Shown here in pieces: positions 31,918 to 38,169 of a stretch of DNA of 39,258 bases; within the stretch, counting starts at the first letter, position 1; every line of letters begins with the position of its first letter. This DNA is from a virus (lineage: Duplodnaviria; Heunggongvirae; Uroviricota; Caudoviricetes), in IMG/VR virus record IMGVR_UViG_2519899560_000023, one strand, 5' to 3'. Both the position numbers and the translations under genes were made by a program. Below the pieces are notes generated by a model. It did no database searches, was not told the DNA's origin, and saw nothing but the letters and a program-made list of their open reading frames with translations.

Positions 31918-32468
31918 CCCTGACCCCGCATCAGCGCGCCCTGTTGCAGTTGCTGCCTGACGGGCTGGCATGGGATAAGCGGCCGTCATCCGTTCTTGCG
32001 GCTTTGTGCCTGGGCCTCAGTCATTCCACGGAGCGTGTTTCCTGGACCGGTAACCAGATGCTGGCAGAACGTTTTCCTGATTCATCCCGTCTGCTGCTGG
32101 AAGACTGGGAGCGTTATCTGGGGTTACCGGAATGTGATATGACCGGCGCAACCATTCAGGAGCGTCAGCGTTATGCCGGGAATAAATACCGGATGAAACC
32201 CTCTCTTAACCGTGAATTTTATATCCGGTTTGCGGCAGAGTTTGGTTATGAAATAGATATTCAGCCATCACCGGATTCACAGTGGGTCAGTATTGTCACG
32301 ATTAACAGTGAAACCGGCTACCGGAATATGAATGTGCTGGATGATATTCTCACGCCGCTGCGTATTTATGAAGGCGGTGCGCTGGAATGTATTCTGAACC
32401 GTTATAAGCCTGCATGGCAGACGTTTATTTACGTATATGCAAACAGTCACGAAGAGGAGAATATTTAA
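31908..32468 (+). CDS. tail protein (Mu gp48-like)
   Basis: 186 aa; precedes tail fibre gene. Confidence 0.7.
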   Translation: MAVTLTPHQRALLQLLPDGLAWDKRPSSVLAALCLGLSHSTERVSWTGNQMLAERFPDSSRLLLEDWERYLGLPECDMTGATIQERQRYAGNKYRMKPSLNREFYIRFAAEFGYEIDIQPSPDSQWVSIVTINSETGYRNMNVLDDILTPLRIYEGGALECILNRYKPAWQTFIYVYANSHEEENI

Positions 32469-33379
32469 TGTTCCATGTTGATAATAATTCCGGCGTGGCG
32501 AATATGCCTGCGCTGGCACCGGCGCAGAGTAATACCACCACCTGGTTTACCGAAGGTGACGGACAAAAAGGTATCAGCTGGATTGGTCAGGACTGGCTGA
32601 ATATTCTCCAGGCCGAACTGCTGAATATTCTGGCTGAAGCCAGTATTCAGCCGGATAAGGCGCAGTTAAACCAGCTTACGCTGTCCATTAAAGCCATTAT
32701 CGCTGCGAATGCCTTTTCCCGGAAAAACAACCTGAAAGAAATTGCTGATGCCGGTGCGGAAGCCCAGCGTCTTGCCCGTGGTTATCTTGGTCTTGGGGCG
32801 CTTGCCACAAAAAACAGTCTTGGTCCCGGTGACGTTAATGCTCTGGCGAAGGATCAGAACCTTGCCGACCTGGAGAATGCGGGAACCGCCCGTAATAATC
32901 TGGATGTTTACAGCAAAAGCGAAGGTGATAACCGTTACCTGCGCAGGGAGCAGAACGGCGCAGACATTCCGGATAAAGGCGCTTTTATCGATAACGTCGG
33001 TTTACGGGAAACGGTAAATAAGGCTGCTGATGCCCTGCCATCGGGTGGAACCGCCGTGGCAGCAAACAGACTCGCCACCCCAAGAAATATTAATGGTGTT
33101 CCTTTTGACGGAACGCTGGATATCAACATCACGTCAGGAATGACGCAGTCAACCGCAGATGGCCGGTATGTACAGAATGTTCAGCTTGGAGCACAGAGCT
33201 ATCATTCACCCGGAGGCAATGAAATGTCATGGAATTACAGCGCACCTTCCGGTTGTATGCTTTCCGGAATTAACGTGCAGGAAACCGGCTCCCGGTCTGC
33301 GGACAATATCGGTGGGGTCTATTATCGCCCGGTTCAGATTTATATTAATAATGCCTGGAGAACGGTAAGTTCAGTGTAA
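32468..33379 (+). CDS. tail fibre protein S (constant part fused to the currently expressed variable C-terminus)
   Basis: ATG overlapping gp48 stop (TAATG); N-terminus MFHVDNNSGV; C-terminal tip homologous to the inverted cassette at 34015-34377. Confidence 0.8.
   Translation: MFHVDNNSGVANMPALAPAQSNTTTWFTEGDGQKGISWIGQDWLNILQAELLNILAEASIQPDKAQLNQLTLSIKAIIAANAFSRKNNLKEIADAGAEAQRLARGYLGLGALATKNSLGPGDVNALAKDQNLADLENAGTARNNLDVYSKSEGDNRYLRREQNGADIPDKGAFIDNVGLRETVNKAADALPSGGTAVAANRLATPRNINGVPFDGTLDINITSGMTQSTADGRYVQNVQLGAQSYHSPGGNEMSWNYSAPSGCMLSGINVQETGSRSADNIGGVYYRPVQIYINNAWRTVSSV
32985..33010. other. gix/hix-like recombination site (left), inside S
   Basis: TTATCGATAACGTCGGTTTACGGGAA, close to the remembered Mu gix; inverted homology with the right end begins at GGTTTACGGGA. 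Confidence 0.65.
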
Positions 33380-34372
33380 ACCACAGAAAAGGGTGCTGAA
33401 TGCACCCTCTGAATTATTCCGGTTTTTCCGGCCAGGGAATCGCCTGGTAATGCCCCTCACTGGCAATATCATTAAAGTGCATTTCTTTAAGCTGTCGGAT
33501 ATACGCCATCCAGCGCGTCAGCTGTAATTTATTTTCATCGCTAATCATGTCCAGTTTTAATTCCGTTTTCCAGTCATCCACAGTTTCGTTGGCTTCCTGG
33601 AGCAGCGATGAGCGGCGCTTTTCAGCAACCGTCTTCCAGTTTACCGGCACCTTTGATATCAGGCCATCAGAAAACTGCCAGTTACCGTCAATATTCACAC
33701 CTTCCGGCAGTTCGTCCACTTCAACAACAGTAAAACCTGCCGGATATAAAGCAGAGACATCTTCAGCAACAGAGCAGATAATACCCGTTACAGGCGAAAT
33801 ACAGAGTTTGTATTTCTTTGTGAAAAGCGGGATAGATTCATAAAAATCCCTTCCGTCCTCACTCTGGAAATACTGAACATCCTCACCATAGGGTTTGTGT
33901 TCCGGGTAATATCGTTTTACGTTAATAAGCTCCATTATTTCACCTTGTTTTTGTTGAAAAGACAAAATCATCATATATTTATTCAGATAATCTGTTTTTT
34001 GAACTACTGCACTTTTATGCGCTGGAAGCTGTTTTCCACGAACCATCTATCAGAAACTGAACAGGTCGATAATATGCGGTTACCGTTGCATTACCATCAC
34101 CAGCGACATCAAGCCCTGTAAGTACGCATCCGTCAGGAACCTCAAAAATATTATATTGCATTCCAATCGTTGACCTTGAACCTCTTCGAATGCTTTGAAC
34201 ATAACGTGAGTCAGCCACAGACTGCGTCATCCCCGATGTAATATTTATATCCTGCGTTCCGTCAAATGGGACACCATTAATATTTCTTGGAGTGGCGAGT
34301 TTATTCGCTGCAACAGCCGCTCCGTTCGATGGCAGGGCATTCGCGGCCCTGTTTACAGTATCCCGTAAACCA
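32999..34372. other. invertible tail-fibre segment (G-segment analogue, about 1.4 kb)
   Basis: Bounded by inverted gix-like sites; contains Sv (+), one tail fibre assembly gene (-) and a promoterless alternative S' tip (-); gin adjacent. Confidence 0.7.
33414..33935 (-). CDS. tail fibre assembly protein (U'-like chaperone)
   Basis: ATG at 33933-33935 preceded by AAGGTG; track ORF extends to 34046; about 174 aa. Confidence 0.7.
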   Translation of the reverse strand: MELINVKRYYPEHKPYGEDVQYFQSEDGRDFYESIPLFTKKYKLCISPVTGIICSVAEDVSALYPAGFTVVEVDELPEGVNIDGNWQFSDGLISKVPVNWKTVAEKRRSSLLQEANETVDDWKTELKLDMISDENKLQLTRWMAYIRQLKEMHFNDIASEGHYQAIPWPEKPE

Positions 34373-34377
34373 AGGTT
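34015..34377 (-). CDS. promoterless alternative tail fibre C-terminal cassette (S'v)
   Basis: Minus frame open from stop at 34378-34380 to 34015; translation NLGLRDTVNRAANALPS...GVPFDGTQDINITSGMTQSVADSRYVQ... parallels the S C-terminus. Confidence 0.7.
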   Translation of the reverse strand, partial: NLGLRDTVNRAANALPSNGAAVAANKLATPRNINGVPFDGTQDINITSGMTQSVADSRYVQSIRRGSRSTIGMQYNIFEVPDGCVLTGLDVAGDGNATVTAYYRPVQFLIDGSWKTASSA

Positions 34378-34385
34378 TCAGGGAT
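34360..34385. other. gix/hix-like recombination site (right)
   Basis: ATCCCGTAAACCAAGGTTTCAGGGAT, near-palindromic 26-mer about 55 bp upstream of gin. Confidence 0.65.
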
Positions 34386-34439
34386 GCCGTATATCTGCTT
34401 TAAAAGGCCTTTCCACCTCTTTTTAAGGAAGGTAAATAC

Positions 34440-35000
34440 ATGCTGATTGGCTATATACGCGTATCAACAAATGACCAGAACACAGGTTTACAAAGAAATG
34501 CGCTGGAATGTGCAGGATGTGAGCAGATTTTTGAAGATAAAATGAGTGGTAAAACGACACAGCGGCCGGGACTGAAGCGGGCACTGAAGAAACTAAAACC
34601 CGGTGACACACTGATGGTCTGGAAACTGGACAGGCTGGGGCGCAGTATGCGCCACCTTGTTGCGCTGACAGATGAATTACAGCAACAGGGGATAAATTTT
34701 CGTAGTCTTACTGACAACATTGATACGTCAACCCCCATGGGGCGCTTCTTTTTTCACATAATGGGTGCGCTGGCAGAAATGGAGCGTGAATTAATTGTCG
34801 AACGGACACGGGCTGGTCTTGCAGCTGCCCGTGAAAGGGGACGAACCGGCGGCAGACCCCGTCGTCTCACGCAGGAACAATACGAGCAGGTCGGGCGTTT
34901 ACTGGCCGGGGGTGTCAGTCGAAGACAGGTGGCACTTATTTTTGATATCGGCCTTTCAACCCTTTATCGTTATTATCCTGCGAGCGTTTCGGAAAAATAA
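34440..35000 (+). CDS. gin: serine DNA invertase (Gin/Hin/Cin family)
   Basis: 186 aa; N-terminus MLIGYIRVSTNDQNT with catalytic-Ser context; C-terminal HTH; adjacent to invertible segment. Confidence 0.9.
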   Translation: MLIGYIRVSTNDQNTGLQRNALECAGCEQIFEDKMSGKTTQRPGLKRALKKLKPGDTLMVWKLDRLGRSMRHLVALTDELQQQGINFRSLTDNIDTSTPMGRFFFHIMGALAEMERELIVERTRAGLAAARERGRTGGRPRRLTQEQYEQVGRLLAGGVSRRQVALIFDIGLSTLYRYYPASVSEK

Positions 35001-35099
35001 GACGCTCTCTTTGTTGGGCCTTTACTGAATTAACGCAAAATGGCGTTTATCGGTCTGTGGATATGATAATTCAGTTTATTCAGGAACAGGCTGATTATT

Positions 35100-37139
35100 A
35101 TGACGTCCAAATGGGTTCAACTATCATCAATGCCCGGAAACTTTACTGTTAAAGTTTCCGGTGGTACAGCGGCATTTCTTGAGGCTCCCTTTCCTCCGGC
35201 CGAAACAAAAGGAGGAATGACATTTGCTGACTGTCTCATCAGTTTTAATACACGGGATTGCCTGTGGGTAAGGCCAGTATCCGGTGATCCGAGTGTGGAA
35301 ATTACCGGAGCGGGTATTGGTGCGGTCATTCCGTTAAGTGCTGATGTTGCCGGTACTGCTGAACCGTCAGACTGGGATAATGCTGAAACACATACCCGTC
35401 CGTCAGGAAATGAAACTGCTTCCAGCTCCCCTTCCTGGTATTACGTGGTGGTTCTTGCTGGTCAGTCAAACGGTATGGCTTACGGTGAAGGTCTGCCACT
35501 GCCGGAGACATATGACCGCCCCGAACCGCGTATTATGCAGTTAGCCCGTCGCAGTACAGTCACGCCGGGAGGTAAAGCCTGTCAGTATAACGACATCATT
35601 CTGGCCGACCACTGTCTGCATGATGTGCAGGATATGAGTGGAAAAAATCACCCGAAAGCGGATGTGGCTAAAGGGCAATATGGCACCGTGGGTCAGGGGC
35701 TTCACATTGCCAAAAAACTGCTGCCGTTTATTCCGGCAGATGCGGGGATTCTGCTGGTTCCCTGCTGCCGTGGTGGTTCTGCATTCACGGCGGGTGCTGA
35801 CGGCACGTACAGTGACAGCACGGGTGCTTCAGAGGACTCAGCCCGCTGGGGTGTGGATAAGCCGCTGTATAAGGACTTAATCAGCCGGACAAAAGCGGCA
35901 CTGGCGAAGAACCCGAAAAACCGCCTGCTTGCTGTGGTGTGGATGCAGGGCGAGTTTGATATTGATGCGAAGCCGACGGAGCATTCCGCGCTGTTTCTGG
36001 CGATGGTGGAAAAATTCCGCGCAGACCTGGCTGAACAGGCGGAACAGTGTACCGGTGGCAGTGCTGCTGGCGTTCCGTGGATTTGTGGCGATACCACGTA
36101 TTTCTGGAAACAGAAAAATGAACCGGCATACCAGGCAATCTATGGCGGCTACAAAAACAAAACAGATAAAAACATTCATTTCGTTCCATTAATGACAGAT
36201 GAAAATGACGCGAATGTACCCACCAACAATCCGGCAGAAGACCCGGATATTGAATCCATTGGTTATTACGGCTCAACGTGGCGTAACAGTGCCGCCACCT
36301 GGACATCTGCGGACCGGGCCAGCCATTTCAGTTCATGGGCACGTCGTGGGATTATTTCCGACCGTCTGGCCACGGCAGTTCTGACTCATGCGGGGCGAAC
36401 CACAGTAAAAGCCGATGTTCCATCTTCTGAAACTGAAGCACCAGTGCCGTCACCTTCAGAAACTGAAGCAGTAACCACAACACTGCTGTCTTATCGTGTC
36501 AGTGAGTCAGAAGGAAATCTGAAAGCCCAGGGCTGGGAGCCGGCTGGCGGTAAAGCTGAAATTATCAGTGATGCAGGAGGCACAGGTGGTAAGGCAATGA
36601 AACTGACCAAGGAAACAGGTAAATCATCCTGGTATCTGGATCATGATGCCGGTACTGGTGCTGAACTGCTGAAAAATGGTGGTTTAATCAGTTGTCGTTT
36701 TAAAGTACCTGGCGACCTGGTGGCAAACCAGTATGTCATGGGGCTTTACTGGCCGGTTTCCTCTCTGCCGCAGGGTGTCACCCTGACAGGGGATGCAGGG
36801 AATAATCTGCTGGCATCGTTCTACATCCAGACAGACGCAAAAGACCTGAATGTGATGTACCACAATGCAAAAGTGGCAACAAATAACCAGAAACTGGGAA
36901 CCTTTGGTGCATTTGATAATGAATGGCATACGCTGGCCTTCCGTTTTGCAGGAAATAACAGCCTTCAGGTTATTCCGGTTATTGATGGTCAGGATGGTGC
37001 CGCGTTTACCCTGACGCAGTCACCAGTAGGAACTTTCCCGGTGGACAAACTCCGCGTAACGGATATCACAAAAAATGCAACTTACCCGGTGCTGATTGAC
37101 AGCATTGTGGTGGAAGTGAAAAAAGCGGTAACAGAATAA
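35100..37139 (+). CDS. SGNH/SASA-family carbohydrate O-acetylesterase-like protein (NanS-p-like) with N- and C-terminal extra domains
   Basis: 679 aa; VVLAGQSNGMAYGEG block, then LLVPCCRGGSAF and VVWMQGEFD blocks and DRASHFS; C-terminal about 230 aa beta-rich. Confidence 0.6.
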   Translation: MTSKWVQLSSMPGNFTVKVSGGTAAFLEAPFPPAETKGGMTFADCLISFNTRDCLWVRPVSGDPSVEITGAGIGAVIPLSADVAGTAEPSDWDNAETHTRPSGNETASSSPSWYYVVVLAGQSNGMAYGEGLPLPETYDRPEPRIMQLARRSTVTPGGKACQYNDIILADHCLHDVQDMSGKNHPKADVAKGQYGTVGQGLHIAKKLLPFIPADAGILLVPCCRGGSAFTAGADGTYSDSTGASEDSARWGVDKPLYKDLISRTKAALAKNPKNRLLAVVWMQGEFDIDAKPTEHSALFLAMVEKFRADLAEQAEQCTGGSAAGVPWICGDTTYFWKQKNEPAYQAIYGGYKNKTDKNIHFVPLMTDENDANVPTNNPAEDPDIESIGYYGSTWRNSAATWTSADRASHFSSWARRGIISDRLATAVLTHAGRTTVKADVPSSETEAPVPSPSETEAVTTTLLSYRVSESEGNLKAQGWEPAGGKAEIISDAGGTGGKAMKLTKETGKSSWYLDHDAGTGAELLKNGGLISCRFKVPGDLVANQYVMGLYWPVSSLPQGVTLTGDAGNNLLASFYIQTDAKDLNVMYHNAKVATNNQKLGTFGAFDNEWHTLAFRFAGNNSLQVIPVIDGQDGAAFTLTQSPVGTFPVDKLRVTDITKNATYPVLIDSIVVEVKKAVTE

Positions 37140-37285: not shown

Positions 37286-37468
37286 ATGACATTCGTTCAT
37301 ACAATGCTGCTTTATTTCTGCGCTGTGGTCAGTGCGTTATATCTGGTGAGCGGTGGTTATAAGGTCATCAGAAATTATATTCGCCGTAAAATTGATGATG
37401 CGGCAGCTGAAAAACTCAGTAAAACAGCACAGGCACCGTCATCCCCAAACGACCCGACCCCGCTCTGA
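37286..37468 (+). CDS. small membrane protein (one N-terminal TM helix, hydrophilic tail)
   Basis: 60 aa; MLLYFCAVVSALYLVSGG hydrophobic core; AAGGTAAGG upstream. Confidence 0.5.
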   Translation: MTFVHTMLLYFCAVVSALYLVSGGYKVIRNYIRRKIDDAAAEKLSKTAQAPSSPNDPTPL

Positions 37469-37503
37469 TAACGGGGCAATATACCTGCAAAAGGAGAATA
37501 TTC

Positions 37504-37749
37504 ATGCCAGAGATTAAAGGCACGGTTACTGAAGAGCTTGTCAAACAGGCACTTTATTCTGAAGAAGTGAACCGCGTGCTGAAGGCGCAGGTTCGCAAGG
37601 ATTTTGAGGCACAAATCGACGCATATGTTGATGAAGTGCTGGCCCGAATGGTTGGCCGTTCTCCGGCTGAAAACAGCACGGAAAATGATCCTCAACCCGT
37701 AGAGCAACCAGAGCCGGTTCAGCCCGGAACTGACGGTACTATGATGTAA
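37504..37749 (+). CDS. small acidic helical protein
   Basis: 81 aa; strong SD AAAGGAG 7 nt upstream; followed by terminator. Confidence 0.55.
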   Translation: MPEIKGTVTEELVKQALYSEEVNRVLKAQVRKDFEAQIDAYVDEVLARMVGRSPAENSTENDPQPVEQPEPVQPGTDGTMM

Positions 37750-37758
37750 CAATACCGA

Positions 37759-37790
37759 CCGGCAGGTTTCCCTGCCGGGTGAGTTTGTTA
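37759..37790 (+). terminator. rho-independent terminator after small-protein cassette
   Basis: Stem CCGGCAGG/CCTGCCGG, loop TTTC, then GTGAGTTTGTT. Confidence 0.55.
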
Positions 37791-38066
37791 ATGCACGTTT
37801 TGTGTATTTTCCCTCCTGGGAGAACAGGCAGGACATATCAGCATCCTGAAACAGGAAGCATTTTTGGGTTTGTATGTCTTGCCATTTTGAGATCGAGAAC
37901 GGCGATAGATGAGCTGTAAGGGAGTCTTACAGGCAGGGCAAACAGGCTCTTTCATCCATGATAAAGATCTCCTTTTTATGCATCTCTGCTTTACAGGAGA
38001 CCGGGGAATATCATAGGATACGCCACGAGCTCGAAGTAAAGCATTGATGCAAGTTTTTACAGATTG

Positions 38067-38105
38067 ACCCAGCATAGTTCCAGCTATGCTGGGTTTCACT
38101 TTTAT
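38067..38105 (+). terminator. rho-independent terminator upstream of com/mom control region
   Basis: Perfect 10-bp stem CCCAGCATAG/CTATGCTGGG, 6-nt loop, then TTTCACTTTTATG. Confidence 0.65.
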
Positions 38106-38169
38106 GTAGTATCCTGTTGATTTGAAACATACTACATATACGCGTGATCCTACCTTCACTGTATAAAAA

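Follow-up and report, generated by a model that had tools for sequence, protein, structure and literature searches.

How can an invertible tail-fibre cassette with two alternative tips work with a single assembly-chaperone gene, and with one that lies on the strand opposite to the fibre being expressed? The question is raised by a 39,258-nucleotide (nt) stretch of Caudoviricetes DNA (IMG/VR record IMGVR_UViG_2519899560_000023, analyzed over its full length and hereafter the window), in which a segment of 1,375 base pairs (bp), next to a gene for a Gin-type serine DNA invertase, carries two opposed C-terminal tips (Sv and S'v) of the tail fibre S together with a lone tail fibre assembly gene (Tfa). 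Invertible tail-fibre cassettes are textbook examples of programmed host-range variation, and to our knowledge every described cassette pairs each tip with its own chaperone. From the organization, natural variation and relatives of this locus, we lean towards the reading that one Tfa serves both tips of a Gin/gix host-range switch and that it would act on Sv in trans, from a separate minus-strand transcript.

The region is composed of the following features (coordinates of the window).

32468-33379, plus strand: S tail-fibre gene, an open reading frame of 303 residues
32468..32996, plus strand: Sc, the constant N-terminal part of S, outside the invertible segment (open reading frame; residues 1-198 match Mu S 1-191, E 3e-43; Sakai ECs_4989)
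32985..33010: gixL, TTATCGATAACG-TC-GGTTTACGGGAA, core at 32997-32998
32999..33379, plus strand: Sv, the variable tip expressed in the present orientation, resembling the C-termini of other fibres
33388..33410, minus strand: GC-rich hairpin between the convergent stop codons (terminator scan and folding)
33414..33935, minus strand: Tfa chaperone gene, 173 residues (PF02413, Caudo_TAP, E 1.9e-18)
33936..34014, minus strand: AT-rich spacer of 79 nt from the S'v stop to the Tfa start (from the sequence), with its own Shine-Dalgarno motif AAGGTG
34015..34372, minus strand: S'v, the promoterless alternative tip (in-frame fusion to Sc in silico; annotated in flipped genomes)
34360..34385: gixR, ATCCCGTAAACC-AA-GGTTTCAGGGAT, core at 34372-34373
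34440..35000, plus strand: Gin-type serine DNA invertase, 186 residues (PF00239, HTH_7, Gin structures)

The segment is bounded by two 26-bp gix-like sites, which form the outer ends of an inverted repeat with arms at 32993-33174 and 34196-34377 (182 nt, 78% complementary; other pairs within 7 kb reach at most 24 nt). The reverse complement of gixL, TTCCCGTAAACC GA CGTTATCGATAA, aligns to the gix site of SfMu, TTCCTGTAAACC GA GGTTTTAGATAA, and the two sites, identical to SfMu gix at 20 of 26 positions, are the only matches to it in the window. The invertase begins with MLIGYIRVSTNDQ and has the Ser9 nucleophile and C-terminal helix-turn-helix of a small serine recombinase; it matches PF00239 (E 1.4e-51) and HTH_7 (PF02796, E 1.7e-14) and, over residues 1-182, the Gin structures 3uj3 and 4m6f (E ~2e-91; 3uj3 E 2.3e-91). 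A loose scan of 34440-34700 for the Fis motifs of an enhancer gave many weak candidates and no clear pair. As in Mu, the constant N-terminus of the fibre lies outside the segment and the two opposed C-terminal tips inside it, and inversion in silico joins S'v in frame to Sc, giving a 295-residue S'. The co-directional assembly gene that each tip has in Mu (U or U') is represented here by a single Tfa, co-directional with S'v only. A preliminary description of the locus had noted these two tips, the one minus-strand Tfa and the lack of a chaperone co-directional with the expressed Sv, in a compact segment; every element is where it was placed, the segment measures 1.4 kb against ~3 kb in Mu, and tblastn with seven diverse Tfa proteins detects no other Tfa-like sequence, co-directional or not, in the 39,258-nt window. 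The hairpin at 33388-33410 resembles a terminator. Its U-tract is better on the strand of Tfa, the minus strand, where it folds at -17.5 kcal/mol (z -3.0), the plus-strand values being -15.1 kcal/mol and z -2.3; the RNA of the 79-nt spacer does not fold unusually (z -0.5).

The window derives from a known phage. Positions 614-39258 are 99.95% identical to Sp18, a Mu-like prophage of Escherichia coli O157:H7 Sakai (8 mismatches, one 12-nt gap), and 32400-35100 matches it with one mismatch. Positions 1-613 show no relation to the sorM insertion site flanking Sakai Sp18. The window thus comes from a different strain, in which this phage sits elsewhere in the chromosome, as would be expected of a Mu-like phage that transposes. 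The possibility that the C/T change at 32998 reflects two versions of the Sakai record was considered and rejected, since the other left flank and the 12-nt indel, which sits somewhere before ~21.5 kb of the window, indicate another strain. The Sakai annotation names ECs_4988 as gp48-like, ECs_4989 as tail fiber, ECs_4990 as tail fiber assembly protein, ECs_4991 as tail fiber protein and ECs_4992 as DNA invertase. Asadulghani et al. predicted Sp18 to be intact, found its DNA efficiently packaged and scored its host specificity as atypical (PMC2669165); the invertible region itself is therefore already known, annotated and published as atypical.

The segment inverts, as the preliminary description had supposed. 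The present orientation is covered to at least 80% in one place in 181 complete E. coli genomes, and the flipped orientation, at the same coverage, in 23, O157:H7 strains among them; in 16 of these 23 the flipped query is fully covered in one piece, at identities of up to 99.9%. Where the segment is flipped, the inner gix half-sites have traded places exactly as crossover within the core predicts, and the 295-residue S' is annotated intact (WP_032213164.1), followed by the Tfa gene. Both orientations are also seen among IMG/VR contigs of the Sp18 family. Flipped genomes, swapped half-sites and the IMG/VR contigs together establish that inversion has occurred repeatedly in nature.

Whether Sv is short of a chaperone, with one available only after inversion, as the preliminary description seemed to imply, can be approached from the relatives of the tips and of Tfa. 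Sv shares 47-64% identity with the very C-terminal ends of SfMu S', of the P2-like H and of the Rac-SA53 fibre, each of which has a Tfa gene 2-4 nt downstream, and S'v is ~51% identical to the tip of the fibre of Hafnia phage yong1. Among 80 IMG/VR loci found with Sv, a co-directional Tfa lies within 150 nt downstream of the tip in 64/64 outside the Sp18 family, and a convergent Tfa is present in 16/16 of the Sp18-family loci. Sv-type tips thus probably depend on a Tfa. The Tfa of the window is a clear member of its family (PF02413 at 67.3 bits, cut-off 22.1; Mu U, 5yvq_B, E 2.3e-15), and is closest to that of Rac-SA53, with which it shares 52.6% of residues over the whole protein and 69% over the first 90; when one genome per species was scanned with this Tfa, no relatives were returned. 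In the passage of PMC9608196 that summarizes North 2019, the N-terminal domain of Tfa is the variable, fibre-binding part and the C-terminal domain is conserved across phages. Against 48 non-invertible loci, the N-terminal domain of the window Tfa is 67-71% identical to Tfas whose upstream tip is Sv-like and 61-66% identical to those whose upstream tip is not, and the Tfas of the former group sit 8-17 nt downstream of their Sv-like tips. Judged by its relatives, the single Tfa would therefore be of the type that partners Sv-like tips, though it is not co-directional with Sv. A C-terminal motif, [YF][YF]R[PQ].Q......W, is common to both tips and to the other tip types of the family, and this element (YYRPVQ..W) is a plausible common docking site for one Tfa.

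Expression data for Sakai, whose Sp18 is in the present orientation, point the same way. In a time course of entry into stationary phase, ECs4990 (Tfa) and ECs4991 (the S'v fragment) rose together, by log2 2.13 and 2.12, both in cluster 2, and no further Sp18 gene is listed beside them; in the supplement their profiles track each other from ~-1.0 to ~+1.2, the shift of ECs4989 (S) stays below 1 log2 unit and ECs4993 shows a flat profile (PMC2241611). Since the S'v fragment and Tfa are co-induced while S stays nearly flat, they behave in these published array data as a transcription unit independent of S (PMC2241611). The silent set of this segment, untranscribed in Mu, is thus transcribed here, going by literature array data only (PMC2241611), and independent expression of Tfa would depart from the Mu paradigm. 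The Shine-Dalgarno motif of Tfa, the spacer before it (51-121 nt across the family) and the terminator-like hairpin were likewise counted as support for a separate transcript.

Derivatives that have lost the invertase bear on the same question. They comprise seven IMG/VR loci (L024-L029, L033), E. coli CI5, which is not a Shiga toxin-producing strain (non-STEC), and six further complete genomes; examples are L024 3688-4522 and, in CI5 (L100), NZ_CP011018 4271725-4275542. In all of them gin, gixR and tip A (the tip co-directional with Tfa) are gone except for a remnant, ...ITAYYRLII*, and S and Tfa are permanently convergent. They share one common junction, and the DUF6645 gene that follows the invertase in the window now begins on the opposite strand, at a distance of 313 nt from the start of Tfa; this 313-nt region is 98% conserved, and its best promoter-like match, ATGATA-17-TATAAT, lies 124 nt ahead of Tfa. 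Tfa remains an intact 173-residue open reading frame with four alleles and a ratio of nonsynonymous to synonymous substitution rates (dN/dS) of 0.10-0.23, indicating purifying selection. A Tfa usable only if co-transcribed with the fibre would be useless in these convergent derivatives, and its retention argues for its own transcript, serving the Sv-type tip.

The chaperone shortage is thus probably wrong, because a convergent Tfa is kept under selection in the invertase-less relatives, because Tfa and S'v are co-regulated apart from S in Sakai (PMC2241611), and because the fibre-binding half of Tfa is of the Sv type, its closest relatives normally partnering Sv-like tips. In the mechanism that we prefer, the invertase would flip the 1,375-bp segment and so swap the last ~126 (Sv) or 118 (S'v) residues of S. 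In the flipped state Tfa lies downstream of Sc-S'v, where the late transcript could cover it. Its source in the present state would be a separate minus-strand transcript, which would also cover the silent S'v and end at the hairpin between the convergent genes, and the Sv fibre would be chaperoned in trans. That the single Tfa folds both tips through the shared C-terminal motif, where the promoter lies, and that the transcript is present in lytic growth are steps that we infer.

Several points weigh against this reading. The silent S'/U' set of Mu is not known to be expressed in G(+). A scan for sigma-70 consensus promoters gave no convincing candidate in the 79-nt spacer or in the interval between gixR and gin, and an alignment of that interval across family variants contains no conserved promoter-like element. 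The allele diversity of Tfa in the fixed derivatives may stem from recombination, and part of the dN/dS signal may predate the deletion. Finally, the array data describe a lysogen at a growth transition, not lytic growth, with one 70-mer probe per gene (PMC2241611).

A more specific version of the preferred reading, which we find doubtful as it stands, is that the single Tfa always lies downstream of a promoter, namely the late promoter, through Sc-S'v, when flipped and, in the present state, a growth-phase-responsive promoter that points leftward from the right repeat arm or from the side of gin. If it were true, the chaperone supply of Sv would be coupled to host physiology and not to the late programme of the phage, a single Tfa would act broadly on several families of tips, and in the invertase-less derivatives the newly created TATAAT element would stand in for the promoter that was lost. 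Separately, the spacer ahead of Tfa contains a TTAT-N4-ATAA dyad at 33979-33990, and we take it to resemble a site of the Mu C protein. Dyads of this kind (TTAT-N4-6-ATAA) were dropped as evidence for a late promoter: the window holds three (~1 expected) and at least three occur in 5/100 shuffles, while none lies upstream of com, where Pmom is presumably to be expected. The conservation of the region upstream of Tfa, only slightly higher than that of third codon positions and confounded by indels, was not used as evidence either.

While the preliminary description was right about anatomy and inversion, it overlooked that the crossover cores of the window copy are unequal, with GA at gixL (read in the orientation of gixR) and AA at gixR. 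With Hin, altering one base in one of the two cores blocks ligation in the inverted configuration (PMC4817059), and by analogy the unequal cores of the window copy mean that it is probably locked in the Sv orientation or flips only rarely. Matched cores occur in relatives, as GA/GA in 2010C-3347 and the flipped genomes and as AA/AA in Sakai, and strain 150 carries the same GA/AA combination as the window. Compared over 2,701 nt with Sakai, 7409, FRIK2455, E2865 and 2010C-3347, the window departs from them only in the first base of the crossover core, at one site or at both. Unflipped copies show every combination, GA/GA, AA/AA, GA/AA and AA/GA, together with a 3-nt GAA variant at gixR. Across complete genomes the gixL junction has 74 exact matches and ~80 with one mismatch, and the gixR junction 23 AA, ~83 GA and ~36 GAA; from these marginal counts at least ~57 copies must have non-matching cores. 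Localized conversion at mismatched sites was reportedly described for the P1 invertase Cin by Iida and Hiestand-Nauer in 1986. The polymorphism confined to the cores looks like such conversion at mismatched crossover sites and may be read, by this analogy, as a footprint of invertase activity, in which case it would be a population-level record of that activity in a major pathogen lineage. As a side observation, the 61-residue hypothetical protein WP_071526725.1 (RefSeq; 34241-34426, plus strand), which spans the right repeat arm antisense to the 5' part of S'v, is frameshifted in strains with the GAA core and is probably a spurious call.

The mismatched cores are also one of the arguments for the alternative that survives best, although we regard it as unlikely: that the locus is a relic of a Mu-like segment (tip-U / U'-tip) which lost one chaperone gene, that the resulting layout has no designed function, and that unequal cores have since frozen the window copy. 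Besides the GA and AA cores of the window, the at least ~57 complete genomes with non-matching cores and the behaviour of Hin (PMC4817059), this alternative can call on two loci, L076 (4001-4981) and L092 (347-3190, invertase 71% identical), in which the same Tfa family is found in the classical order of tip, Tfa and convergent second Tfa next to an invertase. Because these two-chaperone relatives use the same Tfa family, loss of one chaperone gene is a likely origin of the one-chaperone layout, and their arrangement is possibly its ancestral state. However, the layout is now a conserved family trait. All Sp18-family loci with an invertase (L016-L023, L030-L045, L075, L081) consist of Sc, an Sv-like tip B (46-100% identical to Sv), Tfa and tip A on the opposite strand, and gin, with one Tfa each and three types of tip A; it is thus seen in every family locus examined, in three Tfa/tip allele classes and in both orientations. 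In every invertible relative 51-121 nt separate Tfa from the tip that precedes it, a distance of 2-17 nt in ordinary pairs of fibre and Tfa genes. In L022 the Sp18 Tfa and Sv are combined with a different co-directional tip A, from which it follows that Tfa is not bound to its co-directional tip. All open reading frames are intact, and so, by prediction, is Sp18, whose DNA is efficiently packaged (PMC2669165). The deletion may account for the origin of the segment without excluding a present function.

A second alternative, which we hold to be quite unlikely, takes the segment as an on/off switch, in which only the flipped Sc-S'v with its Tfa gives folded fibres and particles made in the present state are fibre-defective. 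Such a switch would fit with Sv having no co-directional chaperone, with the constant association of Sv-like tips elsewhere with a Tfa and with the unexpressed silent set of Mu. It would not explain why Sv-type tips are intact and diversifying across the family (46-100% identity), why lysogens are more often in the Sv orientation (181 versus 16-23) or why the invertase-less relatives are fixed in that orientation with a conserved Tfa, and it conflicts with the S-independent transcription of Tfa in Sakai (PMC2241611).

It is very unlikely that the Sv fibre is folded by the Tfas of other resident prophages, so that this orientation would need a polylysogenic host. O157 Sakai does contain 18 prophages, among which complementation is documented for other functions (PMC2669165), and the conserved C-terminal domains of Tfa, as given in the summary cited above (PMC9608196), would favour such exchange; yet by the same summary the fibre-binding N-terminal domain is variable and specific, a Tfa of the cognate type is encoded only 35 nt away from Sv, and the fixed derivative in the non-STEC strain CI5 keeps its own Tfa under selection. 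That the short Sv tip folds without a chaperone and Tfa is needed only for S'v, as the unusually short fibre (303 residues versus 504 in Mu) and the orientation of Tfa might suggest, is highly improbable given that homologous tips elsewhere are followed by a Tfa in 64/64 loci and that the fixed derivatives have lost the S'v-type tip with Tfa still intact.

The surroundings of the switch differ from those in Mu downstream of the invertase. Directly after it, a 679-residue protein (35100-37139, plus strand) with a SASA domain (sialate O-acetylesterase-type, E 6.5e-12) and DUF6645 (E 2.4e-69) is present in all family members, the invertase-less ones included, with 60-100% identity, and could be a tail-associated or surface-modifying esterase. 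Between this esterase-like gene and com/mom, a position that is empty in Mu, lie small genes encoding the domains DUF1378 and DUF826, together with a 154-residue minus-strand open reading frame without a family match (37286-37749, plus strand; 37788-38252, minus strand). An Rfam search of 32300-35200 returned nothing meaningful.

One chaperone gene for two tips, and for at least five tip types family-wide, even where it points the wrong way, means that the specificity of Tfa would be broader than one tip, one chaperone, and that a chaperone can be expressed apart from the fibre operon. The 1.4-kb segment is a minimal host-range module, potentially of use in the engineering of phages or tailocins, and the family offers a natural series of matched cores, mismatched cores and deleted invertase. 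We found no paper that mentions the lone chaperone gene or its convergent placement, the derivatives without an invertase, or the polymorphic cores, but our coverage of the literature is incomplete and this does not prove absence.

Several known systems are close to this one. In the fibre-Tfa pairs Rac-SA53 tail1/tail2, P2 H/G and 186 K/orf, which have no invertase, a co-directional Tfa lies 2-17 nt downstream of the fibre gene. Sv is 57-64% identical to the end of the Rac-SA53 fibre, and the Tfas of the two are 52.6% identical. Gene K of phage 186 (L015 1909-1934) carries an annotated relic of a Mu-like crossover site at the fibre position of gixL, again without an invertase. The invertase-less Sp18-type prophages share Sc, an Sv-type tip, the convergent Tfa and the downstream DUF6645 gene, and differ by deletion of the second tip, gixR and gin. 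The C segment of P1 with Cin and the P segment of e14 with Pin are Fis-dependent serine invertase switches that exchange the C-termini of tail fibres, a class to which the window system would also belong, and carry two tfa genes each. The G segment of Mu (also of D108 and SfMu) likewise has an adjoining Gin-type invertase, convergent alternative tips, a 26-bp gix site inside the fibre gene at homologous codons (...FI.N.GL.ETVN...), an Sc homologous to residues 1-191 of Mu S and the same flanking genes, gp48-like upstream and com/mom downstream. In contrast, the Sp18 type has one Tfa in place of U and U' (SfMu is arranged as S-U / U'-S'), a segment of 1.4 kb instead of ~3 kb, a fibre of 303 residues instead of 504 that looks like Mu S minus its middle, a 79-nt spacer before Tfa where Mu has a 1-3-nt junction, a silent tip and Tfa transcribed independently of S (PMC2241611), and extra genes between gin and com. 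The system in the window works like the G segment but is a distinct architectural variant of it.

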